Assembly (NCBI GenBank): GCA_051294905.1
Contig: CM119372.1
Location: 10,542,001 to 10,606,000, forward strand
Origin: Botryllus schlosseri
Lineage: Eukaryota
Reading direction: 5' to 3'
Length of the DNA: 64,000 bases
This document shows, in pieces, positions 50-49,500 of the stretch. The translations under genes were made by a program, and so were the position numbers. The stretch's first letter is position 1, and each line of letters opens with the position of its first letter. The notes beneath the pieces are model-generated. The model was not told where the DNA came from. It ran no database searches and saw nothing but the letters and a program-made list of their open reading frames with translations.

Positions 50-2265
50 GAAAGTCACAATCCGAAAGCAGCCGACGTAAACGATCCTCCGTAATATGTT
101 CCCGGGAGAATCAGCCGGAATGTCAATATAGTGCGGGAGATAATCCGGAATTTAAAAGTGATACTTTCATCACTGTATTTGTTATTAGAAAATCTGATCC
201 AACACTGTGTATTCAGGTGCATCCAACTTAATCGCCGCGGCTGCGGAAATCGCTGGCGTTCCTACATCCATACATTCTGGTAAATTTTCATCCCTAGTTA
301 GGATACCTTATAATTGATATAAGATATAAAGTAGCTTGGTGTCTATTCACTAATATTCCCGCAGAAGCCGACGGAACAATCGCTGGGCCTTTTAATAAGG
401 AAGAACTGTCGTCTACACGAACCGAAGTTGAAGGTATGATTAAAATGCTTCAATCACTCCTGTTTTCAGTCATATGTTTCAGGGGACTAAAATATCTCTT
501 AACATGCAGAAAGTAAATCTACTATCGCGGATCAACATAAGCCCATTCCTACGTCGAAAAAATCTTCCAAATCTAAGAAGGAACCAAAGCCTCTGTCAAC
601 TCGTCGCATGCCTGTTGGAAAAAGTTGTCACGGATTTCTTGAAGTCTGTTTGTCTTGTCATAAAGATGATAGCAAAATTACGTATTCGATGCGCCGCATT
701 CCTTACGTACGAGCGTTACCATCGCTTGAACACGAAAACAAAACTTTAAAACCGTCCGCCAATGAGGATGAGTCGGAAGCATCTTTACTTGGAACCTCGT
801 GCACCTCCAAGACTTACGTGCGGATGCGTGATATTATTTGTTTGCTAAAAATCCCTGGAGAATCGTTGTACTCGCTGACAAATCGATGTGCTGTGGAATT
901 ATTTTATCCCAGTGACTATGCAATAAAATTGTTCCGCTCTGTTTACGACCCAGTAAGTGATTCTGATCCGATCATGGCCAAGATGATGATGACGAATTGG
1001 CGGGGAGAGATGTTTCAAGAATTTTTGAACCATATGATCATTTTGGACGAATTTTTACACTCCATGTTGCCGGTAAGTGCCGTCGGAATTGAACACGTGA
1101 CCCTGCTCAGTTGAATCATTATGTCGTATTGTTTTGCCAGCGATTTTATTCAGAATGTTTAGACATCCGTAGTACAGATGTTCCGAACTTTGTTAACGTC
1201 AAAATTTTCAAACCGATCCTGGGTATCGGTGAAAATGTTGTTGAGGTTAGTCTTGATTTCCGTGTAAACTCGATTATAAACAATGTAATCGAAATTTCGT
1301 TTCATAGATCTTCCGTAAGCCGTATGAATACAACTCCATCTTGTGGAAAATGGATCGCCATAATTTCGCTAAACCATCGCCCAGACAGAGATTTTGCACT
1401 GCTGCCCATTCTACTATACGCAAATGCAACAACACACCTGACACGAGATATTTTCCGGGTGGCACGCAAACTCACCAACCGTCGACACGAAACTCACCAG
1501 GCGTTGATCAAAACCGGAAAACAAATCCCCGCTCAACTGTCAACTTCATCGCTTCCTGGTCTCCACCGAGCGCGAGTAAAGGAAATGTTGACACGACAAA
1601 CTACTCTGTGTCTGCGCAACGACTGCAGTACATGAGGTATCCGCAACCTCAGGACCTTCCAAGAACCACAAATTTCAATACTCAAGGGCCACGTCAGTAT
1701 GATGGTACACTGAGAGTGATTCCTACGGATGCCAGGTTGATCACAAATAATCTACGACCACCTGGTGAAATGGTTCAGTATCACGGAGTCGTGCGGTATC
1801 GTGGAATGAGAAGTGTAAGCAACCATTGTGATGTTGAACAAAGAGGAGCTACTACCTATTTACAAGAAGCTATGACCACTGTCAATCATGAGCAGAACCA
1901 GAACTACCTAAACTCGACTCTTGCGGTGCGATATCCTAACGCTAGCGCGTCGGTACCGCGGCCACCTCCGCCGTACATTGCGCCTGGCACGATAAATATT
2001 ATGGAAAGTCCGCCTGCTGGTCAACGATCTTCAGCTACTTCTTCAACGCAAGAGATGAAGCGCCGTCTACCGATGAGTACACAAGGTAGTAAACTTTATT
2101 ATGTTATTACTTTTGTGCACGTAAAATGTCACTGAATATGATGCGAATTTGCCTGATTACTTGTTAATTATTTGCTAATTTGATGCGTTGTACATACAGG
2201 TAATGTCGAGTTTGGTTCAATTACGAAGAAGGGACGACCATTCTCGGGCATCGAAATGCTAGCAG
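50..2265 (+). CDS. Partial multi-exon gene, uncharacterised protein (5' end outside window; 3' end not resolved)
   Basis: Exons 50-157, 217-279, 365-433, 510-1072, 1141-1245, 1308-2085 and 2200-2265 all have AG/GT boundaries and compatible phases (1,1,1,0,0,1,1). They join into one open frame of about 584 codons that uses ORFs 608..1114, 1111..1635 and 1341..2135. Introns are 59-114 nt. No family recognised. Confidence 0.7.
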
Positions 2266-5134
2266 GTAAAATAATTCTTTATGCGCAATAGCAATGTGAT
2301 AATGTAGGCTGTATGAGGGAAATTGAGAACAACGAGTGCACCGTACGTTTAGTTGCCTATAGTCAAACGACCGTACGTTATATTTTGATTGGAAATTCTG
2401 CCGAATAAAGCTTGGCTAATCGAGTAGCTTGCCAATTCGATCGCAACCCTACCTTGCCTGTAACTATATACTTCGTACCTATCGAGGCCTTCTCTTGAGA
2501 CTTTGTCAATATAAACCACTGGTTTTCCGATAGGAAAATAATTTCATGGCTAACTAAAATTCACGTTCACATGTATTTAAAGGTAGCAGTCGCAACAGGT
2601 TAACAACAGTCAGCCCCCTTGGCTAATCTTCTATCTAAATACAATAACCATACAATCAACAGAACAATGTCAAATTACAACCTTTTCTTCCTAATTCCTG
2701 CTTCACATAAGATACAAATCACCCAAATAAGCAACAGACTGGAAGGAAAATGGCTATAAACCGCGAGGACGATGGCGCTACAATAGGCACCACTGAGCGT
2801 AATGGCTCATGTACAAACGAACAATTCCTCGTGTTACAACGGGAACTTATCAGATCCAGCGTCATTGGCCATTAAATTGGCTATCCCGATTATGAATGTA
2901 GTGTTGCCGACGATGGATAATGGAAAAACGACCATGCTTCTACCATGTGTCGACAGTCTTTGCTGTCGCAGGATTATGTGATCACGTGCAATTGGCGTTG
3001 TACAAATTACTTTCAACAATTTATTTCGATCATGTATCGGATTGTCTCATGCTCATCTTTGTCATTTCGCTAAATATCAAACAGCAACCATATTTAACAT
3101 CATTATATGTATGATGACGATGCCAACGGAACAGGGTTATTCGATTATCTTATCATCAGGTTTCTGAATGGTATTCTATATGCTAAACCTACTCGTCGTA
3201 TTGTAGCCCTAAATTGCAACCCAGTTTTTCACCAATGTTGACACGAAAATGACAATGGCGAATCTATTATTTTCATCCACTGAAGACACACAACATACAA
3301 TTCGAGGCACAAGACTCCATGCAATGTAATGTACAGATAAGGTGTTTAAACGATATCTCGATCTAATATATCCACCTCGGCCTAATGCCAGATGTAATAG
3401 TATTCGATTTCAACCCGTTCCTTTTCACTAGTTTTCCTTGTATTCGGACTTCTTTGTAAAGACATCGGGGATTTTGCAGTTAAAACTCGATTCACAAGTC
3501 GAGTTGAGTTAAGTTAAGTCTTATTAGCAAGAGTGCTTTTTCTGGTGTATATGTCAAACATAGGACATTATGAGGAAATTGACAAAAACGGCGACCGTAA
3601 ACCCGGTTCCAAGATGTAATGTTTAAACTGTTCGCACCGATTCATAATGCAGAACATCGTATAAAGTTCGCATGTTCTCACGCAGCGCGTTTTGTATTCT
3701 TATTACCGCTAATTGAAGTGTCGCGGTCACACTATAGAGTATGACTGGAGTGACGACTCGATTGTTCTCCCATTGTTAGCCGGCAGAATGGTCACGGTCA
3801 GATGGCTGCACCCAAAACAGGATCGCTCAGCGCTTGTTTATATGGCGTTCAAGGCGATTCGTCGTGTATTTCTTGAAGTTGCGTCGGATTTAGTTGGACA
3901 GTTCAACATTTAGGTAGCGGTGGCGAGTCGTTATGACTAGTGAATATTACCGTGTAGCCTATGTTACATTTCTCACGAGATTGATGTGATATTGTGGCTT
4001 TGATCCTTTATAGAGTTTGCTACGTATATAAATAATGACAGAAGGTATATAGAATTTCTGGTTCGTGTGCATTGGCTATTGTGAGATGAATTCATGGAAA
4101 GGACGACTGAAGAATACTACAAAGTGAACAAGTGAAAAGATCTTGAACTTTATCGATATGCAGTTCACAATAGCTTTGATTGAAAATATATCCTATATTA
4201 ACTGCAGAAATTCGAGTATGAATATAACAAATAATATCGCAACAGTCTTGGAGTCTTGTGTGCCTGTCCGATAACCGTAGAAACTTGAGTATGACTAGAA
4301 CCAGAGCCTTGTGTAATGTCAATGTTCTGCTTGATCTCGATTCACAATAGTTAGAGCCTACTCCTTGGAAGTATGCAAAATCGCACTTGAATGGAACTCG
4401 TTGTCATTGCCAAAAATACCAGAATACCCTGGAATTCGCTTGGAAGACCTCTGCCAGTCGACATTAGTAGAAAGCCAATGCACCACGTCAAGGTTTCGAC
4501 CAACGCATTGGTTTCCTTTTTTAGGTAGGGAATCTCGATGTGGATAGGCAGCATTTGCCACAGAGAGAAAAAAACTACTATACTAACACTACCAGAAACT
4601 ACATTCGCTCCATTTGCTTCATCTTTTCTTGGTCATGGGTTCCTTGCCGACTTTTGTCCAAGGATTTTGATCACCATAGGCTTATGTTGTATTGGCACCT
4701 TTCTCTCTCTTTATAGCCTTACGCTGGCATGAGGCATTTACTGAGCAACTGACTTGGCTAATATCTGGATTCCTGCTGTATCTCATCGAAGACCGCTGTT
4801 AACTTTTAACATTCGTGAATAATAATAATGAATGTCAACTGAAGTTACCAAAGATCCAAATGCTGCTTCCAGAACATCTTGTGTTGGGTCTCTGAGAGAT
4901 ACTGATTCCATAACACCATTCAAAAGCCGAATTGCTAGGTTGACCATATTCTTGGTCCATATTTGTATAGAACTCTGAATATAGTGTTCACTTTTGGCCT
5001 TCCTGAAATTGGATGTAAATTTCACCGACTTGTTACTAGTGGTAACTAGAGTGGAACCACATAGTCGGTGGTTATAATGGGACCTATGAACATGAGTATT
5101 TCCTGCCAAAAATCTCAACATTTGTAACAGATAT

Positions 5135-5235
5135 GCTGGAAAATATAAGAATATTTCAATCTACTCGGAATTGCTTCGCGGGCCGGATGAAATCGTCTGG
5201 CGGGCTGGATGTGGCCCGTATCTTTGACACCCCTG
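5135..5235 (-). mobile_element. hAT/Charlie-type MITE end nested in the P-like element
   Basis: Reverse complement begins CAGGGGTGTCAAAGATACGGGCC...GGCCCGCG, a typical Charlie-MITE terminus. Confidence 0.55.
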
Positions 5236-5367
5236 CTTTACATTATAGTAAACCCCACAGTGATAGCAGTAGCAATTGTCAGATTGGTAAAGAAATACCA
5301 TGGCTAATACAATTTCAGCAATAACAAAAAAGCAAAGACTTTCAAAGAGCATATTGTTCATTTTTTT

Positions 5368-6315
5368 TCAAGCTATCTCGCAAACATTTGGAAAATTGTG
5401 AGAACAGAAGTTATTCAAGTGTTTCATTGCCTTGTCCATGACATCCTCAACCTCATTTAGGTCTGAAACAGATTGAAGGGATACAGTATGAATCAATTTG
5501 TTATTGAATGGATCGCATTGAATTGCCTCAAGTACCCTGAAAAAAATTATCTTTTTCCGGGGTTTTGCCATTTCTTTACTGTGGATAAAATAAAATCGGA
5601 GAACCATGCCATTTCTGCATCACTTTAATGAGGTTTCCCGATGGTGCTGCAGTTGTTACGCATGTGGCAATTGCTTCGTTGGCTTGCTTAGAAATGGCTT
5701 CCAAAAGCACTCCACCAATATATTCAAGTATGTCTAAAAACATGTCAAAGTTTTTCCATGGAAAGGCAAAGTATAGGCTATTTACTTACCAGATTCCTTG
5801 CTGATGACTCCTCCAATCTCTGTGATTGGATGCTGCTCTTTACCGCAGACGAGAGAACCAAAAATCTTCAAAAGTAATGTAAAAGTAAGAAGCTGGCAAT
5901 TGTGGCAAACCCAGAAACTTGTTAGCTTGATGGCAGGATATTAGAGTAATGTTGATAAAATCCGTCAACACCAAGTTTACAATATTCAGAATGGAGTTTT
6001 TCCACCAATGGAACCGCTTTGGTCATGTCTAGTTCCTCGAATGATGGCGCGCATTCAAAGTATTTCGCTATTTACACAAGCCCTCTTCGAAACAGTAATT
6101 ACAGCATCCTCAGATATATTCCAATTACTGGTGAGAACATGATTTTTGTAATGTTTCTTCAAAGCTTTCGCAGTAGGAAAGGATGCTTCGAATTCCTCAC
6201 AGAAGATACACCTTTCCAGTTATTGAGTCCTTCGAAACATTCTTCAATTTCCATTTCAGTTAGTCCCTCCCAGTCATCCCCAAAGGCTAAAGTGATGCGG
6301 CCGAATCAGCCATGA
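5368..6315 (-). pseudogene. Decayed transposon-borne gene: C2H2-like finger followed by a YIGG-containing domain
   Basis: Minus strand reads FCEEFEASFPTAKALKKHYKNH at about 6136-6204. A 56-nt GT-AG intron (5734-5789) joins ISKES to DILEYIGGVLL...C...NLIKVM. Frameshifts and stops are present. Confidence 0.55.
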
Positions 6316-6717
6316 TACCGACTTCTATGCGTGACGAAGTATGATCTAATTCTGGCGAAAAATATAACAGAGGATACACGGTATTATTCACTAGTCATAA
6401 CGACTCGCCACCGCTACCTAAATGTTGAACTGTCTAACTAAATCCGACGCAGCTTCAAGAAATCCACGACGAATCGCCTTGAACGCCATAGAAACAAGCG
6501 CTGAGCGATCCTGTTTTGGGTGCAGCCATCTGACCGTGACCATTCTGCCGGCTAACAATGGGAGAACAATCGAGTCGTCACTCCAGTCATACTCTATAGT
6601 CACACCGCCATATACAATATAAGACGATATATATTGGATTTTGTATTTATCTTCTTTGTCGCTACGGTATAGATATCAGGCGATACAGGGGAACAATCCC
6701 TTTCGGTCGTGTTAGCC

Positions 6718-6753
6718 TATAGATAACTAACCTACGTAGGTTAGTTATCTATA
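6718..6753. mobile_element. 36-bp perfect palindrome with 7-bp TSD (minimal TATAG-type MITE)
   Basis: TATAGATAACTAACCTACGTAGGTTAGTTATCTATA is self-complementary. GTTAGCC occurs at 6711-6717 and 6754-6760. Confidence 0.75.
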
Positions 6754-9660
6754 GTTAGCCGTAGCACGATGCCGCCACGTGGTAAATTTCCGAAAAGAGA
6801 AGATACGTCACAATGTAGCATTTGATGCATGACGCTATAAATGGCGGTTCTTAGCCTGTACTAACCTGCGGAGCACGTCATTTAATCTGCAAACCTAAGC
6901 GGAACCCTAAATTTTCGTCGAGTCATAAAAACATAAATCTACCATATTGCACAACTAACAGCACATCTGATAAATAACAATAGATTACTGGTGAACAAAT
7001 GAATTGCGCATCAACAAAGTGTTGAAAGAACAAAACCATTGAATTATAATTTTCACACAAAACGAAGACGTTATAATAAAAGTTTACTCCAAATCAACGT
7101 GACTTCTGCCGTTCCCTTTGAGATTCCAGTTCAGAAATTAGAGGCTTCATATTGCAGAGTATCATCATATTGTTCGGTCGAAATGCAACAGCGTGATACT
7201 AATTTCTCAAATGTGAATATTGGAGTTAGAATGGGCCTTTCAGCATGACTGGATTTCGATTCCGAATCCCAATCTCCCATGCGTATGCCACTGCACATGA
7301 CGTACCACCACAGCACTACTGATAGGACATGATTACCTGCAATAATTGATGGGCAAGTCGGCGTGTCGTCACAGATCATAAGTATGAGACTGGCTCAGAG
7401 AACACCGGTCAAGAACGAACGGGCTTTGAATTACTAACCTATACGGAAGTGACTAATCTATAGTTTGGCAGAGATGAGAAATGAGCATGGATTTGGATTT
7501 GGATTCCATAGAACCCTATCCGAATTTTTGGCGGAACTAGAACGTATGTTTTTTTTTCAACTGGATTTGTAATTGGACTTGGTCAGTCATGAAAAATATT
7601 AAATCCTCTCATCTATGGCATATGGGCGAACGTTTTCATAATGTCATTGAAGCATGGTTACGTTAACAGTCTCAATGTTTCTCCGTAATCCAGGATAATT
7701 ACATAAGAATAACGTTCGCCACATCCCATCTGCTCGTGGATGGCGGAGTTACGAAAAACAATTGGTTCACAAACTTTATTGGCTTGTGGCACACGGGAGA
7801 AATGATACGCGGCACACGTAAAACAAAGCTGCATTTGAAGAAAAAACAATGTTGTAACACAATGGATATCCGTATTTGTACGAACATATATACGACTGAA
7901 CCGAAATTACATTGCATTGTTGATAAGAATATACCGGCATTTCGTCTTCATTTCCAAGTCCTCTCTCGTGCACACTGCACAGCTTTTAATTTCAGTCAAA
8001 ACAAGGAATATATGTTGTCACAGTCGTGGAGATACAAATGGCAATCAAATTCTGATTTCTTTTGCACCTATCATTGTAATGAGACAGCCATAACTCATCC
8101 GTTTTTGTGGAAAATGGCGTTTTAAAAAGCGGGACGTTTCGTAAATCAATGAGCTGTTCTTCTACAAAAAGATTGCTTGCTCATTACTTCCAAATAGCTG
8201 AACTACCCATCTAAAGATGTGAACGATGAATTAAGAGAAGTAATATTGCAATGCAAATTGAAGTCCGGGCAGTGTGCTCAGGCTTTGCGGAGTACTTTTG
8301 ATTTACCAGTAGCTTCGCTGCAAGAAGCAGGAAACGAATCTTCGCCACATAGCAGTCCAATTATCAGTTGACAGTAACCATACTCAAACGCAATGCCTAC
8401 GTTTCGGCTCTACAGTAACGGTATATGTCACTCCAAAACTGATTCGTAGCTCTTGTGCGCATTCACCATGGCTTTGAAATCGAGTATCCGAGATGCTAAT
8501 CCCCATGTCACAATCTTGTATGACATATGCATAAGCAGATTGTCTCAAACATACGATGCCCAAGGCTTTGTACCTGTTGATAAAACTCACCAATATAAAG
8601 ATTTAGAATGAGCGGACACATATTTATGATGGCAAACGTTTAAAATCCTGCTCGGGACATTTTTGATCATCACAAGATTTAATTTTATGTGGTTTCTCAA
8701 TTTCATTCTCAAGATACTGCCTACTTCTAGTGTTTTATTACATTATAAAATGACGCTTGTTCTAAAACGGTGAAATTTTCTCTCCAGAAGCCGCAGCGTC
8801 TGTCTCTGCATCTGATCGAGTAACGAGACGATCGAATGATGGGATCACCGTCAACATGGCAACAGGTATAGACATCTTTTTGTTGCTTCGACAATAGAAA
8901 AATCAGTTTTAGTATCGTTCAAGCTTCAAAGTTTCAAAGCATAATTTCAAAGCATCATTTGATCAACTGCGAATTGCCCAATATCGGAATCTCCAAAAGC
9001 CAGTTTCGTCCAACTCCAGCAACTAACACAGTGCTCATTATAAAACAAAGGATTTTAAATCTTTCAAGATACGACCCATTCAGATCAAAGCACTTGCATT
9101 TGTCTGTATATGATCTTCACTCCATTCCCTGTAGGACCTGCATCTGTGTTGAAACCTCGAGCGGTCTCCTAGTTACTCCCACTTTTGCCCAACCATCATC
9201 CAGTGACCAAAATAAACCAAGAGTGCCCATTGAGTATGATAGTTTTCGGAGTACTGGGTATACGACGGACGCAGTATATCCTATTCAAATCGTAACCTGC
9301 ACGCCATGATTTAACGTTTGATCGAACTCGATTTCGCTATGTTGGTTACCGTAGTTCTCGATCAACCCAGTGTGTATAATTGTGTATACATTCCGTAAAT
9401 GTCAGTATAATGAAACGAGTGACGAAACCCGCTCCAACCAGGTCGATTACAAGGTTCATGCTTCAGTATGAGATGAGAGGTTTTTCATGGCTTCCTCACA
9501 CAAGCCGGTCAGGCACTACCTTACCAAAGCATGTCTAGCCAAGTTCGGTCATCATCCTCTGGCGTACAGGCACAGTGAAAATGACTATGACTTCCGCTAT
9601 ACAGCGGAAATCGTATTGCCGTGGATATCGAAGAAAAAGTCGTTGTGCATTTTGATTTTG

Positions 9661-15309: not shown

Positions 15310-15407
15310 ACTTAGAGGATATCTGCGATATGACTTTAACACGATGTTTCTCAGTCGCTATGAGGAGTGTTCACACGCTAACGTTTAGTCTATGGTTACC
15401 ATATTAT

Positions 15408-15998
15408 TATAGAAATTAAACATGGAACGGCAACGACCGATTTTGCAGCTTCGTTCCGCTTCGCCGGGGCTGGAGTGGAGAATTGTTTTGCGTAAGCGAC
15501 TGTAGGATTTCTGGCAATCCAAAAGCTATCTTCCCGAGCGCCGAAATTATTGAATCTGGTCTTGATCGAAAGCTACTGTTGCACTGATTCCGAAAATATA
15601 AAGTAAAATAATTATCAGGCACTGATCCACCTAGAATCCGTCCTCCAAGTCTGAAATATCGGCATTGTTCGAACAATCGGAGAGTCGCAACGGGTCATTG
15701 TTATGGTCATTGTGTTGCGGTTACCCGATTGTTCTAAACAATGCCGATATTTCAGACTTGGAGGACAGATTCTAGGTGGATCAGTGCCTGATCAATATTT
15801 TAATGTATATTTTCGGAATCGGTGCAACAGTAGCTTTCGATCAAGACCAGATTCAATAATTTCTGCGCTCGGGAAAATAGCTTTTGGATTGCCAGAAATC
15901 CTACAGTCGCTTACGCAAAACGATTCGCCACTCCAGCCCCGGCGAAGCGGAACGAAGCTGCAAAATCGGTCGTTGCCATTCCATGTTTAATTTCTATA
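15408..15998. mobile_element. Foldback element (two ~285-bp inverted arms) with TATAG termini and 7-bp TSD
   Basis: The arms give the near-identical ORFs 15416..15676(-) and 15703..15990(+). ATATTAT occurs at 15401-15407 and 15999-16005. Confidence 0.88.
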
Positions 15999-16344
15999 AT
16001 ATTATTGTAACAAATTCCGGGCGCTCTTTAGCGCCCACTAACGGACTTCAAAATGAGGTATGAACACATTTGGGTCAATATGACGTCACACCAGCAAAGC
16101 TTTGTCTATCGACTAGAGGTGGTCATGATCCGGTTCAGGAGTATGTGGTTGTGGTTGTAACCAGCAGGGCCGAAGCCACATTTTTCAGCCCCATCCCGCC
16201 CAAATGAACACTGATCTTGAGCCGACTGTAGGGTAATCGATGCAACTTCTGATGGCTTACTATATGCATCTGGTCGTTAAATGATTTGAAAGATTTATGT
16301 CAATAATATTGGGTTCCTCCACATATTGCTACATATGGTCAGAG

Positions 16345-17762: not shown

Positions 17763-18964
17763 CAGTGGTTCCCAACCTTTTTCGACTCATCGCCCCCTTT
17801 TGAAGCTCCACACCGATCATCGCCCCCCAAATATTGGGAAAGTAAAAACAGCACTTTGTCAGACCCCCGAACGTTGGTCTTTGACCCCATAGGGTGATAA
17901 ACCAAACCCCACACACCCCTCAGCCAGTGGGCCTTATGTCGCTACATATCAGCTATACCCTATTTCATGTACTGTTTGGTGAGTCACCGTATTTCGCCTA
18001 AACGCGCGAAGCGCGACAAATTTATATAATTCATGTTTGAATCGGTCAATATGGTCGGGAATTGCATATATATTGCTATCAATTTTTTATCCTCTCTGCC
18101 CGCGTAATCAGATTTACCGGTAGAGCTGAATGTGGTGTGCTGGAAAAGGTAGGACGCCTAAATAATAATTAAACATCTTCTGGCGGAATCGTTGTTATAT
18201 TGACTTCGGTACATGATGTTATTTCGTGATCTCCTATATCTGCTATGTCAGAAGATATGGAAATCGTCAAAACGTACCAAACTAAAAGACGCACATGATT
18301 TCAAATTGGTATTTCTGTACTGGCAAATAATTTTTTCCTTGCGGGATGGCATTTTTCCTGTAGGGTTAAAGTCGCTAGGACAGGAACATTCGACGCCAGC
18401 CATTGAGGCGCATATGGACAAGTATGTGTATATATATATCGAAGTTTTCGGTCAGCACAAGGGCATTCCTTTTCGGCCAAGGCCTTCTCGCTGCTGATCG
18501 TTCTGGCACACTTCTCGGAGTCGCATGTTACATGGCCTTTAACTTCATATGTCTTGGTGCGTCGTGGCGCAGTAATGGCCGACGACGAAGTCACCCATTT
18601 CCATAAATTATGCGTATCTTGTTGGGTGACTGGTAGCTTATCCCAAAATCAAGATATATGATATCATTAAATCGCACGCAGCGCGAAAAATTTCTGAACA
18701 AGTTGCATGAATTTCTAAAAGATTACTTTATAATTCATGTTAATTCACGAAATTATTTTGGGCCCCATCGAGTTCGGGCCCCCACCCCTAAATGTGGAGT
18801 TTGAGATGCGGTAGTTACGGTCCCGACTCTAATATAGCCGTTTTAACGCGCCATCGCCCCCTTCGTCCGTTTTCGCCCCCCTATCGCCCCCTTCGTTATT
18901 TTCGCCCCCCTAGACCGCCAAATCGGCCCCTGGGGGGCGATATCGCCCACGTTGGGAACCACTG
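17763..18964. mobile_element. Charlie-like hAT non-autonomous element
   Basis: CAGTGGTTCCCAAC...GTTGGGAACCACTG; TSD ACCTAGAC; sister copy at 25763-27128. Confidence 0.88.
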
Positions 18965-20561
18965 ACCTAGACCAGTGCTTTTCAACGTTTCTGAACGCCT
19001 TCCGCACTTTGTTGCGAAAATACATCATTCGCGCAAAGCGACCAAAATTTGTCATACAAAAATAATATGAAGCGACTTGAAAGTTTTTGCTTAGTCGTGC
19101 AACAAGTATGGGCTACCGGTTTAGGCCATCAAGTGTCTCAATAAAAAGAGAACTCTTCCTCGTTCCATGATTTCAACCATAGTGCACAAAAGCCTTTCTG
19201 GATGAAATAAGTTGCTGTACAAAAACTTCCAGTCCTTGGGTGGCCAGCTCTCCTATTCAAAATACAGCGTGTTTCCCGCGAGTGAAAGATAATTCTTGCT
19301 GAAGGAAATCTTTAAGAGTATGACACAAAGGTCCCGTAGGCTCCAATTCATCGAATCGGTGCAAAACTCTCAACTTCGTTTTAATGCTTCTGCCTGATGG
19401 TCTGGAAAATACGTTGTTTCAACTTGTGTTCTCCCCCTCCCAATTTGCCATTTTCTGACTCACGAATAGATGGGAACAGCAAAGAAAGTCACGTATTTAC
19501 GGTCACGTATAGGGTTGCATTTAAGACAAATTGTGTTTTAAAACACTACCTATACAATACGGCATGGTTCAAAGATATTTTTGGTTGGTTTAAGTCAGGA
19601 GTCGGAAGCCCTATATCACGGGTTCTCAGCTTCCCATGTGTTACGGGCCGCATTTTAATAGCAAAAGAGGATGCGGGCCACAGAACATTATTACCATGTG
19701 TTTGTAAGATATATTAAATACACTGTATTTACCGGTCGTATACGGACGTTTAATACATTTTTATGCATTCTGACGCAGTAGTGAACAGCGTTCACAAGTT
19801 TTCATTTACTGTTTTCTATGTGAATTAGTCACCTTCCAGTGGCGCAAGTCAGCTTTGTCAAGTTTATGTTTTTAGCTGGTCCTCGATAAAAGCTCCTCAG
19901 TACAGAACAACTGTCCCTTCCGCACGCTTGCCCGGCATTTCCTCTGTAAATGTGTCCATTGTGAGAAGATGCACCCATATTATTAGCTATGTAATATCTG
20001 TAGGCGAGTCGGTGAATTGGTCCAATGCTAGGCTAGAGTAGCCTGCGCGGCAACGGAACTACGATAAAAGATCAACTGACATTGCTGTTACTCTTCTGGT
20101 CACGGTTGAATCAGATAACTGTAACTTCGACGGTTGCCAGGTGATGTTGTCGCTATTGATAAATTTCTGAAACAGCGAATTCACACAGTCTTTCTTAAAA
20201 TCCCACCTTCTCTATCTGACTTCCTGGCTTTAGCGCTATTTTGAACAATGTCTCTGAACCGTTATTGCCTCGAAATGTGGATTGCTGGGATTGTCAGTAG
20301 CGACATTTCCCCCTAAGATCAGGTGGGCAATTTGGGTATGTATTTTTGAACTCTGGATGAAACTGTCAGTGGCAGTGGTGTCGTTTTAAACTTTAATTCT
20401 ATGCGAAAGCAAATTCAATGTTCCATGCAGAGTTGAAAACCCATTTTTCTTCGTTTAATTTCCCCTTTCCTTGTCGCGATCTGTTCAGGCCAGTCGTGGT
20501 GAGTGTAACACTCCTTGAAAGTGTACTACTAAGCGGGATTCTCTTAAACCAGAGTCCAGAC

Positions 20562-22272: not shown

Positions 22273-22620
22273 CATAGTGTCCTATACGGTGTCGACACAG
22301 GCAAATCTCACGCCTCAATGAAATTGTATCACGTCACAATTTCCATTTGGCTACAGGCCATTTGACGGTCATTTTTGACCGGCTTGCCGAGCATTAAATT
22401 TGATAAAACGGGTATCAATCGAAAGCTGACTCTGCACTGATTACGAAAATATAAATTTTATTCCGTCCGTGGCCCTGGAACTCCCACAATCAGCCTCGAA
22501 TTTTTCATTGTTATGGAGATTGGCATTGGGACGCAACAATGCTGTCTGACTCTTTTTCTCTTGAGCTACTCTCTCGTTTCGCCAGACAGCATTGTTGCGT
22601 CCCAATGCCATAACACTATG
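22273..22620. mobile_element. CATAG-terminal MITE with 7-bp TSD (P-like) inserted in the LINE
   Basis: CATAGTGT...ACACTATG; perfect TSD GTTAAAC. Removing it restores LINE text PPLFN|DFFVL. A partial copy is at 60441-60780. Confidence 0.88.
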
Positions 22621-22955
22621 GTTAAACAAAGGAGGCAATTCATTTGAAAAATATTGATGCATAAATTTAGCTACTTCCAATGTAAAAATATCGTCAAATT
22701 TTAGAATATTGTATTTGCGGTAGTACTGGGATAATCTTGTTCGATGGGGCAAGCCAGCCATCAAACACATGGCTCGGTTTTGAAGGGTACGAATTTTAGA
22801 ACAATGTGAAGTACAAGCATTCCCCCATACAATTATGCTTTACTGTATAGATACGAGTAAAAAAGCGAAAAGTAAATTGTCCTAAGCACAGATCTAGGAA
22901 CTATGTGCTTGAGTTTTGTCATTACACCTTCACATCTAGAAAGCTGTGTTATGGT

Positions 22956-25762: not shown

Positions 25763-27128
25763 CAATGGTTCCCAACCTTTTTCGACTCATCACCCCCTTT
25801 TCAAACTCCACACCGATCATCGCCCCCCAAATATTGGGAACCGAAAAATGGGCATACAGACTGAAATCACCGGCGAGTTGACTAAGAAAAAAGGTCAAGT
25901 TTTCGGCTCGACCTCGAAATTACACTTTTCCAGCTAAATTTTGGTGAGTTGACTAACAAAAAAGGTGATTTCACCGACTTGATTCCAAAAGGACCGTAAC
26001 AGCACTTCATCAGACCCCGCCCCAATACGTTGGTCTTGAGTTTCCTCCATAGGGCGATAAAGCAAACTTATGCACCCCGCAGACCCAACTCCCCCGATAC
26101 CTCTTTACCGCTACTTCTCAGCACACATTCTTGGACTCTTTAATTAGTCGACTTAATTCGTGCGATGCGCGAAAAATTTCTATTATTTTCATTATCAATT
26201 TCTATCATTCATGATTGAATCGGTCAATATGATCGGGAATTGCATATATGTTGTGTCAATTTTTTATCCTCTCTCTGCTCATGTATTCAGATTTACCGGT
26301 AAAGCTGAGTGAGGTGTCTTGGAAAATGTAGGGCCCGTAAATCATAATTGAAGATATTCGGGCGGACCCGTGGGTATAATGACTTCGTTACGTAATGACA
26401 TTTCGTGGCCTGTCTGCTATGTCAAAAGATATTCAAATCGCTAAAAGCCGCACACGATTTCAAATTAGTATTTCTGCACTGGCAATTAATTTTTCTCTGC
26501 GAGATGGCATTATTTTTGTGGGGTTCTGATAGCCAGAACAGAAACATTTGGCGCCAGCCATTTATAGGTGCCCTTGGACAATTAAATATCTATTTATATC
26601 GAATATTTATAGAATTCGGTCAGCATGAAGGCAGTCCTTTTCCGCCAAGGTTTTTTCGTTCTGGCACACTTCTCGGAGTCGCATGTTACATGGCCTGAAA
26701 CTTCATATGTCTTGGTGCGTCATGGTGTGACAATGGCTGACGCCGAGATGCCAATTTTTATAACTCATGCGTATTATTTCTTGGAGGATGGGTATCCAAT
26801 AAGCAAGAAATATGTGATACGGAATGGCGCGCAGCCCAAAACGTTTTAAAAAAGTAGCCTAAATTTTTAAAATAATACTCTATAATTATTGTTAATTCAC
26901 GAACAAATTCTGGGCCCCCTTCAAGCTCGGGTCCCCCATCCCAATTGGGGGTTTGGGTGTGGCAGTTACGGTCATGGACGCCAATAAAGCCATTTCAACG
27001 CGCCATCGCCCCCCTATCGCCCCCTTCGTCCGTTTTCGCCCCCCCTATCTCCCCCTTGGCTATTTTCGCCCCCCTGCACCGACAAATCGCCCCCTGGGGA
27101 GCGATATCGCCCACGTTGGGAACCACTG
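25763..27128. mobile_element. Charlie-like hAT non-autonomous element (sister of 17763-18964)
   Basis: CAATGGTTCCCAAC...GTTGGGAACCACTG; TSD ACCTAGAC. Confidence 0.88.
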
Positions 27129-27674
27129 ACCTAGACGGAGATAACACTGGTTTACAAATTTCGAAAAAAGATTAGCGTTAAAAATTTCAATGATTGATTT
27201 AGGCTAATTTATGGTTGCTGAATTCGATTCTGTGCTAATAATTTCTCCATCACGTCAGATTTTTTCCGTATCAATTTTTCTCATATTCATAAATTAATGA
27301 GATTTCAGCTTTCATTAGTGTCGTCACGGTTAGCATACAATAGCAACAATTCAAATATTGTTATTGAAATCACCCATCATGAAACCTGGGTTGTTGTAAT
27401 ACCGAATGAGTGAGTTTTCGGTGAACTGAACTTGAATACAGTGATTCTCTATCATCGTTCAATCAGAAGCTCTTTTCGACCCATAAAGTTACACTGGTAA
27501 ACAAATTCAAAAACCCACACCAAATACCATATTGGAACAGAGGCAGAGATGTTTTTAAATGGTATCGAGGTTTTTTGTTTGTGTTTTGCAATATTAAGCG
27601 CCAGTTCTATATACAAAAAGCTTTACATTTTTGGCGGTTTCTGATTTGCCGTAGTATTTTAATATGAACTTGAG

Positions 27675-30249: not shown

Positions 30250-31079
30250 TCAGTCCCTAGAAACTAAATGATCACCGAAGTGCGGCCTGTTCTACAGCCT
30301 TGGGCGCTTCATGTCAGCATGGGTTCTTCTGATACTCTTTAAATCCTTAATCCAATCGAAGTTACATTATGGCATCCTCTGTTGGGGGGCTGCCAGTAAA
30401 ACTGCACTCAAGCCATTGCAGAAACTACAGCATAAAGTGCTCCGAATCATAGCTAGGGCCCCAAAGGGGCCTGGCTGCCCATCCAATAAGTCGCTGCTGA
30501 AGAGATTCAGCGTCCTAAACATAGAAGATATGCGGAAACTAGAAATCGCCAAGTTTATGTATCAGTTTCACTGCGGTCGTTGCCCCGAATATTTCAATGA
30601 CTTCTTTACCTCTGAATCAAAAGCGCACAAGTACAACACACGCGCGTCCACGTCGTCCAAATATCATATGATCGACCGAAAAGATCATCGCTCCATCAAA
30701 TATGCCGGACCTGATGTGTGGAACAGTATCCCGCCGGCCATCCGACAGTCGACGAGCATGTCCACATTCAAGTCGAAATACAAGCAATTACTACTAAATA
30801 AATACAGTCCATCCTCAAGATTACCGGACCACGACTAACCTATCGATCTCGCTTCCCATGACATGCCGCCCTATTTCTTGTCGCATTCTTCTTCTATACT
30901 ATCTTCTTTACTTTCATTCAGTGTGCATGCCTCCTCTTTACATCGCCTAGGCCAAGGTGGGTGTCAGTTTCCATAGACTACTCCTTGTCGCTTCGACATC
31001 TTCCTGTCTTTTCATTGTATCGCATTTTTGTGGTGTATTGAACTGATAAAATTGCTAATAAACCAATGATGATGATGAT
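30250..31079 (+). mobile_element. 3' fragment of CR1/L2-clade LINE
   Basis: ORF 30311..30838 (HYGILCWG, LQHKVLRII, EIAKFMY, HKYNTR, YAGPDVWNSIP), then AATAAA and an (ATG)n tail. Confidence 0.88.
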
Positions 31080-31833
31080 ATATGCGATTGAAGCGCAAAA
31101 TATTTCCAATAGGAAAATCTCAACCAGAAAACAGCGACCGGACTTTGACCTCTTACCAGGACCGTAACTGCCGCACCTCAAAGCGTCCAATTGGGGGTCC
31201 CGAGATCGAAGGGGGCCCGAAATTATGTCGGTGAATGAACATAAATTATTTATACATCACTTATTGACAATTTATAAAACTCTTTTAAATTTTTTTCGCT
31301 CTGGACGCGATTTCATGTTGCCAAATTTTTGATTATTGAGTACTCTACCTCCACGAAAAAAGCATGATTTATAGAAAATAAAAATAGGCATTTCGACGTC
31401 GACCATTACCACGCCGCGATGCACGTAAACATACGAAGTATTCGCCAATATAGTAATCCGAAAATTGTGCCAATAGATCGCCTGCGAGAAAACCTTATCC
31501 AAAAAGGATTGCCCTTATGTTGACCGTGAACTTCTAAATATATATAACTGTCCATAGCTGCCTAAATGGCTCGTGTCTAATAATTCTATCGTGGCAATCT
31601 GAACCCCACAGGTCAAATAACATTATCTCAGAGAAATATTATTTGCAAGTAAAGAAATACCAATTTTCGATGAAGCCACCACAAACATTTCTTGGATCTC
31701 GCATGATTTCCCAATAAATTACGGCATGGTGTGTAGATGTACGTAATATGGCCATTTTCTTAATTTTTCTGAAAAGTTGCGATCAGCGTTTCACAATTCA
31801 GTTTCCAAGAATAACCAATTATAGTGTCCAAAG

Positions 31834-43508: not shown

Positions 43509-46500
43509 GTATAGTAACAACATTACTAAATCTAATCTAGTTGGCAGGGTTTTGTGGCTATTATGCTATTATACTTGTAAGTTGCTATAAAATTTAATTT
43601 CTTTTGTGGATATTTTGCTGGTTAAAAGCTACATTTACCTCTTTTCGTTTATGTTGGAATGCTAATGAATACGGACATTGTTATTGTTATGTCCCTTTTG
43701 AGCTAGCTATTTTGCATAACTCTCACCTTGTCAATATATAAGAAGAATTTTGCACATATGTGCAATGAGTATAATGGATAGTGGTGATAGTGATAAATAT
43801 TTCAATGAGGTAAGGCTCAATGCTTCAATGCTGTCGTCTTCGTTAATGTGTATTAAGCAAGGTGTACTTGTCTATTGGCAGAATATTCGAGTTTCTCCAC
43901 TTGAGCTTTTTGTGAAAGCCTTCCATTAGGGGGCATGCTCGGTGTCTGCATGGTGCAGCTAATGACTAAAGATTGTCAAAATTGTTTACGAAGTCAAAAT
44001 TTTTACGCAAACTTCATTTCATTGGTGTCGGAGAGGTTGCACAGTCGGAGAGCTTTTCATTTGACATTTAACGCCGTGTAGCCTACTTTACTGTTGTAGA
44101 TGGCCTATTGTCTAGTCATTGTGAATCATAAACCATCGAACAATACAAATAAGTTGACGTGGCGTGATGATCAACACACCTAAAAACGAGAGTAAAGTTT
44201 TTAGCGGGTGCGAAGTTTTTCCAATTTCACGCCAATATCTCGCTGAATGTAAAACTTGACTGGACATAGACCTCAGGCTAAGATACCCTGATGAAGGCTG
44301 GTATAGTGAATCTAAAGAAATATATCCTTGTACAGGGAATGATGATGAATTGTACACGGTAGTAATAAAACATTTTGTTTTGTTCTGCTCGAATCATTGC
44401 TCGCTGCATGATAGCAATCTCTCCTTATTTGCTGACAAATATCTGCAGACTTCTCTCGCTGTGTCTAAGAAGAGCTACGAACGGAAACGGTGGGGATACG
44501 GCTCTTCGATAGATTCCGAATCAGACCCGTCTAGCCCGCACGCACCCCTGGACAAGAGCGATGTATCTGAATCGCCGTTTGATAACGAACACTCAAACGA
44601 TTCCCAGACCGCCGCAGACCCTGTGGTATTCCGACCAAAGGCCGTAACGGCCGCGGCGCAGGAAAACAACGCCAATCGCACATCTAAGGTTTTGGAGAAT
44701 GTGAAAATGTTTGAAAACAAATCGGAAGAAAGCTCCCAAGAATCGGGCGTGGCGAATCGCGGCATCGCCAACCGGGCTAGCAGTCGTAAAAGAGCACCGT
44801 ATTTGGAAGTATGGGAGTGTAAAACCGGCATGGAGGAATTGAAGTTCCGAGACGCGGCGGAAGGTAAGCATCACTCGACCTCGGCCATCAATGCTGGGAC
44901 CACGGACTCGTTTACGGCTGCCGCCGTTTCCATGATGGACACTTCTGTGGGAGGTGGCGGATATTTGCGAAAGCCTTTGATCAAGTCCCAGTCGCTGCAG
45001 GATAACTCGGCTCGCCGAGAGTCAGCACCGCCACGGGATAACTACGTGGAAGTATGGAATTGTAGCACTGGCAGCGGGGAACAGATGGAGCCGGTTAGTG
45101 TGCTGGCAGTGACTAATTTCTGTTGTTTGATTTGTGGGAATGTGCGTTGTTGATTTTCGATTTGCTTTGCCTTGTGAAATAATAATAACGAATAACCGAT
45201 GTAGTTTTGGGTGAACCCTAATTTCTTATCCACATCGACAAATGCTCCTTACGGCATACACCAACCAATTTTCCCCATGAACACGTCAAGATAGTGTTTC
45301 ATGTGGTGTTCTCCACGAAACTCGATGTATGAACGTCGAAGATCCACGTGCTTATAATTGGTCAAGATTTCGGGGTTAGGGGATGGTAGGAGCACTCGTG
45401 ACCCTCATCCCCACCCATAAACCTAACCCTATCTATTCTAGCATAGGTTGTCTGGCTGAGACAGTAGCCTACACTTGTGAGTTGTGATCTTCTCTGATAT
45501 CACCGGCCGTCAGCTATTAAGTTTTGTGGAGAGCACCCCAGACGGTATCCTACCTATTGTATTGTGGATATGTCTGGGCAAGAAAGTGCACTTGTCGGTT
45601 GTGAACTTCACTTGTTCACGGATATCATCGTCCACCAATTTTAAAGTTGTGTGGAGAACGCAGTTGATAATCATGTAAAACTCCATGACTTTTGACATAC
45701 CTGTATTCATAGGGAGTACTTATCGGTGATTGTCATGAGAAACATTTCTCGGTGTGGATAAGAAAGTGTGCGCTGGACCCGTAGTTTTAAATGAGATATG
45801 ACATATTGACAATATGAATTCTAGCCTGACTACTCGTTGGAAGACATAGATGCCAAGGACGGCTATGGGAAAGAGCATTACACGCTTGCCGGCTCTGAAG
45901 TGAAATTGCGGGAATCCAGGGAATTGATCAATGATCCAGTCAGCAACAGATTGACTTGGCCCGCTACCAAGGCCAACACGCCACACGAATTTCAGGTTAG
46001 ATACTTATCTAGTTCTTCGATCAATATCCCTTATTCTCGTTGCTTGGAAATAGCAGGCATAGACATTTTCTCCTATTTTGTTGTATATCTGCCTTAATAC
46101 CTTGCTTAACAGACCATGTCAAAAAGATGATGATTTGCATCCAAAATCGAGCTTTGCTGGAGTTGCTAGTTTCTATATGTAAACGGTACACAGTGTTTCA
46201 AAGCGTATTCTGTTGTAACTATCAATCTGTACGACACTATAGAGACCTATGCATACGATCAACAATAATAGGGTTGACTGTGAGATAGACTAGCCTTGTA
46301 CCGGTATTCAATTTTTTATTAGGTTTCAGTGTGGAGATGTTCTAGTCAAAATTTAATGGGTAGTTGTTCTATGTTTGTCCAATGTACATGTAACATATTA
46401 CGGCCAAGCTATCTGTGCCTACGTGTAATAGTGAAAGCAGCCGTATTTATACCAGGTCATGATGGTTGTGGTTTGGTTGTTAAGTGTCAGTCACGAGACG

Positions 46501-49500
46501 TTCAAGATGTGATTTTGCTTGGAATATTAGCTGTTCTGGTCAATTTTTGGTTGATAGCGTGGTGACGTATTGAGTGAGCCGTTCTATTTTTGTTGTATAG
46601 TTGACGCATGCTTACCGAAGTGCGTAAAGTTTGCTTATGGCACAGTATGACGTAATTGATCCTAATTAGAGTCTTGTTTTGTATTAAAGTCTTGTGTTGT
46701 GCCATTATTGTTTGTACTATGTCTTATGAACCATGTCCTATTTGAACTATGTTGCTGTAATTTCCACATGAGTGTGATTCCGTACGAAATCATAGAAGTG
46801 TAACATGCCAGACAGTGTCGTTAACTACAAGCACGATCCAGTAGTTCCCAACATTGCTTGGTAGGCGTAGTGGTAGAACTTGAGATTGTTGTTTTGCTGA
46901 ATCTTAGAATGTGACTGATAACACAGGCCAAGCCATGAGAAGTGAGAACGCAGTCACAGTTTGTTATCTGAATGATATCAGGTCATCGCACGAAGACGTG
47001 GTCCTACTCGTGTCATGCATTTTGTTATTTTATACACTTGTGCTGCCATTATTTCCGATTTATTAGGCTTGGCTCAACTTGAATCGCGTTAGGATTGCTG
47101 TAAGCTTAGGTGGAGATATGTTTCGAGTGTAAATTGATTGGGAGCAATTTGTATTTTATATGTTAGGTTTTGTCAGCATTTGTAAAGTTATCTCAGGATC
47201 CTGGACGTGATGTTTTTGTGACAGCAAGGTGCATGCATGATATCATTCGCTCGACTATTTGTCATTGTGTAATGTATACCGGATAGTCACTCGGGTGTTA
47301 CTTGAGGAACTTGTTTTTCTCTGTTTTTTCGATAGATTTGTACTTAGCATGTTGTCAAGTCCGACCGGCAAGATGTTTTCGGAAGACAGCTGTTTGCAAG
47401 CTTTGGTGCTGGTGCCGACCATCGCTGTGCCTGTGACTAACGTTAGTTTGTGCGAATCATAGTTTTTGACAGGAAATGTCAAACATCCACAGTGTGTGAC
47501 TGGCGTCAGTCAGTCAGCTTATTTGCCCGGTGTTCCTCTGCTGTCTGTGGTTGCGCGCGCATTAAATCATTCGCGTGTTCCGACAATTTCGCGTTTTTCA
47601 GAACGAAAATTTGGGCATGGGAGAAAGCATTCCCGCGTTGTCACAAATGACCGTTCTCACCGAGGAAAGCTGCGATCTCAGTGACATAGATGACTCGTCT
47701 GGCAGTCAGCCATCTTCTGGATCGCCTGAATTTGACAGGCGCTCCATGGTGAGTGTGTTTTGAGGTTTGGAAAAATTGACAACAATAAAAAATTACATGA
47801 TTTCGGCAAGGAATTACTATTCAAGCTGGTTGTTCTGCTGCAAGCGTGGTTTACAATGAGTTTAATTACGAAATCACTCTACCCACAACATATTTGTCTG
47901 TTTATAACCTTATCATCGGTCAGTTCTTATGCTGGAGTATTTCGTCACTGTGGAAACGGAAAAGCTTATTATGTCCATTTTAAACATTTGAGAGAATTAA
48001 GTTTCTAGTAAGTTTTCAATTACTCTCGTCTCTACCATATCTTGGCTATGGTTAACTTAAAAACAATGTGACAAACGTAAGCATGACCTAGCTATGGCTG
48101 GAAAAAAATTGAAATTTTACAAAAGCATGGTTTTATCAAAATTTGAAAAATGGATCTCAAAATGGACATGGGAAATGGGAAAAATAGACAAGCCTCTTTG
48201 ATTCCGCAGCGATGATTTCTTATCAATGGTCGATTGGTTGATACAATTTGTAGTGTCTAAATATCTGTGTGTTGCAGCCACTTTTTCTTGAATAGAATCT
48301 TACAGGATTGATTGATTTTGGCATCCGAGTTGATGGTCTTGTTTTCAGAGTCAGGACGATATTGTGATCAAGTCAAGAACATTTCCCGAACGAGCTACAG
48401 GCTCTCCATTTCACAGACTTAGCCAAGCTAGGACCACTGATGAAAGGATTGATGCACTTGAAGGAGGAAGGGAAAGGTAATTACAATTGCTCTATCAAAA
48501 TAAGAATGTTGATGCAAAGAATTTTTCAACGGCCGGGCTGGTGCTAATTTTAAGTACGTTGTACTTTATTCAGTTGTACGTAGGGACGGAGACAATTAGA
48601 GTCTCAAAGTGATTCGATGCTGAATCGAGTATCCGGCTTAGAGTTCAGTGCTCGAGCACGATACAGTATGCCATATCAGCAGGGCAGGATGCACTACTTG
48701 GAATGTTCAAATATATGTATTTTTATGCAATTATAAAGAAAACAGTGCTAGTTCACGTCGAAAAAAAAATCGAAGTTTCTCATCCATTTCTATGTGATAG
48801 TGATATTGCACGGAAACGTCTCTGCAAATGATGATGCCCGTATCTTTGTGCTGCACGGAGCTTGTAATTTAGGCTACGCACTCGAAAATTCTATCTTTCG
48901 CTACTGAACTCGAGTATTTGCAATTAATACCTGGTTTGAGCGACCAGCCTTAGTCGTGGACATTACTCATTTTGACTTCCGGGCAGCATTATAGTTTTTG
49001 TCCCATATTGCTGTAGAGTTTTAGGATGTTGTGTGACTTATGCCAGGCGTCACCACCTTATTGCTTTGTGCAGCTATTATTCCGAATATTATGACGAATA
49101 CGGTGACTGGGTCGGCAGCACTCCCGACCATAACTCGGACCGTGACTTTACTGATGACGGTAAGATTTTCAGTTATGTTTCCGCGACGTGTGTAAATTTT
49201 TGAACTCTAACCTCCTACAGACGATGATACCGACAAGATTTCACTTGAGGAATCCAATTTGAGTCGGACTCCGTCGCACTTACGACGGTCAGTTATTTCC
49301 TCTTTAATCTTTCAAACCATTTTCGCCGTGTGGCACACCGTTACTGATGTTATTCTAGACTGGACGACACTACGAGTCTGGACAGTCTCAATAAAGAGGA
49401 CGACCGTATAGATTCTGGATTAGGGGAATATCGGGCGCACCGGGATGCTGAAATAAGTCCGTCTCGCAGCAGTGTGTCAACCGTATGTTGTGAAACGGAT

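Follow-up and report, generated by a model that had tools for sequence, protein, structure and literature searches.

A non-autonomous P-type transposon of Botryllus schlosseri that probably derives from a lineage with a split transposase

Contig CM119372.1 of the Botryllus schlosseri assembly GCA_051294905.1 carries a transposon whose ends are of the P type but whose cargo does not look like a canonical P transposase, which raises the question of what kind of element it is and which proteins would have moved it. The element occupies 3733-6598 of the 64,000-nucleotide stretch analysed here (positions 10,542,001 to 10,606,000 of the contig, hereafter the window, in whose numbering all coordinates are given). 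It is probably a remnant of a P lineage with a split transposase. The explanation that we favour, with a probability of roughly 0.6, is that it is non-autonomous and derives from a cut-and-paste transposon of the P type with two convergent genes, one of which (gene 1) would encode a subunit acting in trans.

Ends, target site and abundance

The element is 2866 bp long and has the termini TATAG (3733) and CTATA (6598). Its left terminal inverted repeat (TIR; 3733-3980, plus strand) and right TIR (6351-6598, minus strand) span ~248 bp and are 95.6% alike, with the outermost 107 bp perfect (E 3e-112 in the TIR self-comparison). An earlier sequence-only reading of the locus had recognised these inverted repeats, while giving them a length of 225 bp that proved too short. 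The identical 7-bp sequence GTCACAC is present on both sides of the element (3726-3732 and 6599-6605), and beyond it lies another 3-bp inverted pair, one base triplet per side; the GT...AC form of the duplication is seen at this single site. The TATAG termini and the duplication can be read directly, as that reading had it. TIRs together with a target-site duplication of 7-8 bp characterise the P superfamily, and the 7-bp GT...AC duplication fits 1360/Galileo; the P-type nature of the ends is supported. No second copy of the element is present within the window, and pattern scans with the TIR matched none of the genome, metagenome and viral contigs searched.

Four public sequencing runs (including X1, a DNA run, and X3, X12 and X23) were aligned to 3300-7000. 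The depth of X1 relative to the left flank, expressed as bin averages that are not copy numbers, is ~440x at the left TIR, ~250x at 3981-4663, ~180x over gene 1 and ~77x at 4664-5035. The whole interior of the element is covered in three contig sets. Since other copies cover the interior throughout, the cargo is sequence of the family rather than host DNA private to this copy, and the possibility raised earlier that it had been captured from the host does not apply. The element belongs to an abundant high-copy family, of which this copy is a dead, internally deleted and rearranged member.

Gene 1

The coding block nearest to the right TIR (~5370-6315) is, as had been proposed, a decayed two-exon gene on the minus strand in which a C2H2-like finger is spliced to a region with the motif YIGG. 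Gene 1 starts with an ATG at 6313, 37 nt inside from the right TIR, and ends at ~5342. Exon 1 (5790-6313) comprises an acidic start, one C2H2 finger and then ~110 residues without a Pfam match; it contains several frameshifts, as judged from the protein P0003 of a related copy and from indels relative to other copies. The 56-nt GT..AG intron (5734-5789) is evident from the sequence and from four RNA reads that skip it, joining 5734 to 5797. Exon 2 (5342-5733) carries the YIGG and GGLxxPS region, which resembles the C-terminal domain of P and THAP9 transposases according to a motif match and to the proteins P0004 and P0005. In this copy exon 2 has a 38-nt deletion at 5612/5613, which is also present in an X12 contig, and a frame break near 5400. 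Most indels of this copy are absent from the X3 and X12 contigs.

A phmmer search with one minus frame (stops as X) against 1.84 billion proteins returned three matches, all of them to gene 1. P0003 (172 residues) is an open version of exon 1 with one C2H2 finger, which matches the Pfam family zf-C2H2_6 with E 8.4e-5, under the curated cut-off; the same finger in the window's own copy reaches an E of only 0.66. P0004 (91 residues) is the open start of exon 2 and contains the residues removed here by the 38-nt deletion, and P0005, a more distant relative (98 residues, 36-38% identity), covers the end of gene 1 and stops right after the LRD.LK word (5401-5366 in the window). Gene 1 is probably a stand-alone gene because P0005 terminates at the same place, and in the parent element its protein would have had roughly 310-330 residues. 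Gene 1 is bordered neither by separate termini nor by a separate duplication, and its depth is similar to that of the rest of the element. A minus-strand frame is open at 5161-5367, connecting the end of gene 1 with the putative first-Asp strand described below, and the rearrangement could fuse gene 1 to a core fragment in some copies.

The likeness to P and THAP9 transposases was assessed with published THAP9 motifs, the table of which gives no coordinates (PMC10824691). P0004 scores 26.5 on the core of motif 11, where the null maximum over 127,936 window positions is 17. Presumably motif 11 lies in the C-terminal domain of THAP9. The earlier notion that the YIGG module is C-terminal-like therefore agrees with a motif score above all null positions, and the further notion that this module sits in a separate spliced gene with a C2H2 finger also stands. 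The motif-11 match occurs in the element in gene 1 only, and downstream of the putative Glu exon of the other block there is neither a YIxG word nor one resembling motif 11; the C-terminal region and the catalytic core, which share one polypeptide in canonical P and THAP9 transposases, thus appear to lie apart in this element. Pfam, PDB sequences and a predicted model provide no independent assignment of gene 1. The AlphaFold model of P0004 is too poor (predicted local distance difference test score, pLDDT, 41.8), and searches with it gave no match in Foldseek and no Z of 5 or more in VIA, while in the Atlas P0003 fell only among short C2H2 or unnamed clusters with recognition under the threshold.

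Putative transposase remnants

The second block (~4000-5120) had been taken for one minus-strand unit that could not be identified. It is best read, from sequence patterns, as P-transposase wreckage on two strands, with 3981-4594 on the plus strand, 4595-5343 on the minus strand and a piece of a miniature inverted-repeat transposable element (MITE) inside the latter, so that of the two decayed minus-strand coding blocks proposed only the first is retained as such.

The plus-strand portion (3981-4594) appears to be the decayed 5' part of a transposase gene, including a frameshifted helix-turn-helix-like piece at ~4345-4480. The letters YS.E....A of the published THAP9 motif 3 occur once in the six-frame translation of the 64 kb, namely at plus 4359 within this piece; its score on the full motif is not above chance. 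Neither a THAP C2CH pattern nor a Pfam THAP domain is readable in the element, in agreement with the sequence-only reading, although the 5' region on the plus strand contains frameshifts and has lost part of its sequence. Letters before 4291 differ in the X3 and X12 contigs, and there the RNA depth drops from ~10 to <1, so that ~4291 is probably a further deletion breakpoint of this copy.

The minus-strand portion (4595-5343) would hold remnants of the catalytic core. These are a candidate first catalytic-Asp strand at 5236-5343, with Ala where Asp is expected; an exon at 4849-4974 with a QDVLE motif and a putative third catalytic Glu at ~4869; a predicted 53-nt GT..AG intron at 4796-4848 (GC 0.26 versus 0.40 and 0.44 in the flanking exons); and a putative last transposase exon at 4595-4795, which completes the Glu pattern and adds a short basic tail, beyond which no motif of a C-terminal domain is seen. 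A 10-letter Glu pattern scores 6/10 unspliced at minus 4881, the best of 127,876 positions, and 9/10 after removal of the 53-nt intron, the next best among 972,718 junction peptides being 6, and a first-Asp pattern scores 7/8 at minus 5334, the best of 127,906 positions, with one other position scoring 6; both patterns were composed after the sequence had been seen, and these ranks overstate significance. The frame of the Glu exon continues, with two stops in this copy, into the basic tail, which ends near 4595; at one of the two stops, most other copies encode Cys.

Embedded at 5154-5235 is one end of a MITE whose other end is missing, with an 8-bp duplication-like sequence at 5236-5243. From its terminal letters we take it to be hAT-like. 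In each of the four runs, depth rises sharply over this fragment and many loose ends occur there, and its missing end may mark the start of a large deletion in the transposase. A 112-residue open reading frame (ORF) of the block, P0001, is probably chimeric, combining exon and intron sequence with sequence next to the MITE. A second catalytic Asp was not found in the element. The fly enzyme has about 300 residues at the GTP-binding insertion between the second Asp and the Glu (PMC7776569). Only 465 nt, MITE included, lie between the first-Asp strand and the Glu here, which suggests that this copy has lost the second Asp and, presumably by deletion, the GTP-binding insertion.

Homology searches of block 2 in Pfam, the PDB, homolog collections and the Atlas were blank (no match of 0.9 for P0001 in the Atlas). 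Word-index searches for homologs confirmed none of 56 candidates in one round and 0 of 7998 in another, the profile of which comprised only 81 positions and excluded the YIGG part, and a further one gave 7 candidates, among which only the two query members were recovered. Protein-seeded locus scans confirmed no candidate stretch (0/21, 0/15, 0/306 and 0/94), and an Rfam scan gave 0 matches. The codon effects of 34 and 22 variants, among 40 listed of 268, carried no frame signal in block 2.

Some of the element is transcribed. The RNA depth is ~10 per direction at 4044-4291 and ~3-12 per direction over gene 1, with none at 4540-5035, including the region of the predicted intron at 4796-4848 (X23); this library covers both directions about equally.

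Inversion and layout of the parent element

The outermost 4 bp at the two ends of the segment 4595-5343 form an inverted microhomology (4595-4598 and 5340-5343), and the edges of the segment coincide with the junctions of shorter variants: contigs of X1, X3 and X12 connect ~4585 directly to 5344, and one X1 contig connects 4594 to 5344 via 30 other letters. When the segment is flipped, an open frame extends from 4529 across the first-Asp strand as far as the MITE, the remnants fall into the order helix-turn-helix, Asp, Glu and tail, and the end of the transposase adjoins the stop of gene 1. These patterns suggest, at about two chances in three, that 4595-5343 is inverted in this subfamily. Gene 1 had been placed upstream of a second minus-strand gene in a two-gene or split-transposase lineage. 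The evidence favours instead two convergent genes with an inverted catalytic remnant; the idea of a split is largely supported, in that the YIGG module has a gene of its own, and the tandem order is not. Another candidate, in which the whole of block 2 would be the tail of a tandem transposase on the minus strand and would include a separate C-terminal domain, was dropped because no motif-11 or YIxG word follows the Glu exon and the flipped order fits.

In the parent element, one gene would begin inside each long TIR, the two facing each other. The plus-strand gene would encode a transposase core with a helix-turn-helix, a split RNase H fold and a basic tail ending just past the third catalytic Glu, and the minus-strand gene a separate protein in which a C2H2 finger is combined with the C-terminal domain that is fused to the core in Drosophila P transposase. 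In the fly enzyme this domain contacts both transposon and target DNA (PMC7776569), and the simplest role of gene 1 would consequently be to supply it as a separate subunit. The second protein is predicted to bind the core in trans and to provide the contacts with transposon ends and target DNA, with the C2H2 finger predicted to add DNA binding. The history of the subfamily may have included insertion of the MITE, loss of most of the core (with the second Asp and the GTP-binding insertion) and inversion of the remaining 4595-5343. This copy would be mobile only when intact relatives provide the proteins.

Evaluation of the explanations

Several observations weigh against a split P transposase with convergent genes. 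None of the searches in Pfam, PDB sequences or, by phmmer, 1.84 billion proteins assigns any part of the element to the P family. With the published THAP9 motif 10 the Glu site scores no better than the null, and four further published cores find nothing clearly above chance in block 2 (the best expected-by-chance value is 0.08, at an unrelated position), to which the late composition of the catalytic patterns has to be added. The unflipped frame is likewise open for ~45 codons, so that the open flipped frame is weak evidence alone, and no strand-switch joint occurs among the 15 of 42 joints listed. As to transcription, 598 of the 609 aligned RNA reads fit only partly, and the four spliced reads fall one base short of what splicing of the window's sequence would give. 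Finally, most P elements have CA..TG termini, in place of the TA..TA found here.

A regulatory role of gene 1 is the main rival to the subunit role, although an unlikely one in our estimate. The lineage would be split in the same way, with the protein of gene 1 acting as a repressor, an anti-silencing factor or an import helper rather than as part of the transpososome, and the core-less family would then brake the autonomous element. The open exon 1 of another copy (P0003), the absence of most indels of this copy from the X3 and X12 contigs and the RNA over gene 1 (~3-12 per direction, with none over 4540-5035) would suit such a role, and there are two-gene precedents in the Myb-like protein of Harbinger (PMC9179366) and in mudrB and VANC (PMC6446971). 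However, the RNA reads may derive from intact parents, and the core seemingly ends without the very domain that gene 1 carries, which suggests complementation. Less probable still is a tandem or circularly permuted layout without inversion, in which all coding sequence is on the minus strand and gene 1 precedes the catalytic core or reads through into it. It matches the order seen in the window, an open minus frame leads from 5367 into the first-Asp strand, and X12 has the block at 4580-4844 as a contiguous stretch in multiple copies. Yet the interval from 5344 to the first-Asp strand is too short to accommodate a helix-turn-helix, whereas the plus-strand candidate joins in frame when flipped; moreover P0005 terminates after the tail word, and other copies carry a stop-forming CTA adjoining 5344.

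Two further alternatives were considered. The element might be the remnant of an ordinary single-gene P transposon, with gene 1 an unrelated passenger or part of another element nested in it; Galileo and Pdre copies typically have internal deletions, and no library links gene 1 to P. The start of gene 1 only 37 nt inside the right TIR, its motif-11 match, its depth close to that of the rest and its lack of ends or a duplication of its own make this improbable. Even more remote is that the element is not P at all but of the IS3EU/GingerRoot type or another TIR element, its motif likeness being due to chance. The TA..TA termini are indeed typical of IS3EU (PMC10045372) and Pfam gives no support for P, but the duplication is 7 bp rather than the 6 bp of IS3EU/GingerRoot, and four P-like motifs lie inside the element.

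Comparison with known systems

With Drosophila P, vertebrate THAP9 and zebrafish Pdre (PMC7776569, PMC10824691, PMC10983969) the element shares TIRs, a short target duplication and introns, as well as a tentative likeness, at the level of motifs only, in the C-terminal region, in the helix-turn-helix and around the first Asp and the third Glu. Unlike those systems, it has the C-terminal region in a separate C2H2-bearing gene, no readable THAP domain and a core that is mostly lost; its TIRs are 248 bp long versus 13-31 bp, and its duplication is 7 bp versus 8 bp. Galileo and 1360 (PMC4168063, PMC3698922) are similar in their 7-bp GT...AC duplication, long TIRs and abundant non-autonomous copies with transposase fragments. 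Their palindromic target may be shared as well, judging from this one site, where GTCACAC agrees with the Galileo consensus GTANTAC at 4/6 fixed letters and is flanked by the 3-bp inverted pair. In contrast, Galileo has a single intronless THAP transposase of ~900 residues, and its TIRs in D. willistoni measure ~760 bp (PMC4168063, PMC3698922), whereas here there is a spliced second gene and a predicted intron in the Glu region, at odds with a single intronless transposase gene (PMC3698922). The element thus appears to work like P/Galileo, but is not filed as canonical P or Galileo because it departs from the single-polypeptide layout. The duplication is also shorter than the 8-11 bp of Mutator-like elements (MULEs; PMC6446971).

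A second element-encoded protein is known from Harbinger (transposase plus Myb-like protein), MuDR (mudrA and mudrB) and Kolobok with KolX (PMC9179366, PMC6446971, PMC9587614). The Myb-like protein of Harbinger partners its transposase (PMC9179366), and promoters in long TIRs have been reported for MULEs (PMC6446971). In those systems the second proteins have unrelated accessory folds, while here the second gene apparently carries a domain that belongs to the transposase itself in other P members. For Academ, whose elements have a short duplication of 3-4 bp, the evidence is confined to the Pfam scans, which were blank.

No split or two-gene P element was found in the open-licence literature, and a P layout with a split transposase is apparently, and probably, undescribed. 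Somewhat short of an even chance, in our judgement, is the wider proposition of an animal P lineage in which the transposase has been divided between two convergent genes driven from the TIRs, with the domain that holds on to target DNA residing in a C2H2-bearing subunit of its own. Such an arrangement could allow cutting and integration to be dosed independently, and this abundant family, in which the core is lost but a spliced and transcribed subunit gene is often kept, could tune the activity of the parent. That the C-terminal domain of P transposase takes part in target capture is itself deduced from one cryo-electron microscopy structure; a natural split, if true, would make it possible to ask, by omitting a subunit, whether excision and integration are separable, and might offer a two-component P-type tool. 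Repeat libraries would in that case miss or mislabel one of the two genes. The layout would be of interest to specialists, although this dead and rearranged copy is a poor specimen that displays it only indirectly.

Other features of the window

A perfect 38-bp palindrome at 6717-6754, 120 bp to the right of the element, is very deep in all four runs, has loose ends on both sides and appears to be the core of another repeat family. At least three diverged copies (68-76%) of a ~1-kb repeat are present at 18019-18972, 26197-27136 and 31156-31666, and a fold-back repeat of 620 bp with arms 91% alike lies at 15395-16011. Two similar ORF pieces, at 30272-30835 on the plus strand and 22444-22839 on the minus strand, are blank in Pfam; we take them to resemble the reverse-transcriptase tails of long interspersed nuclear elements. 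The long open frames of 203 and 275 residues at 503-2132 (plus strand), which have no Pfam match, are probably host exons, and 44260-59514 on the same strand contains exons of a BCR/ABR-like host gene, with a weak Bcr-Abl oligomerisation match, two RhoGEF pieces and a C2 domain in Pfam.

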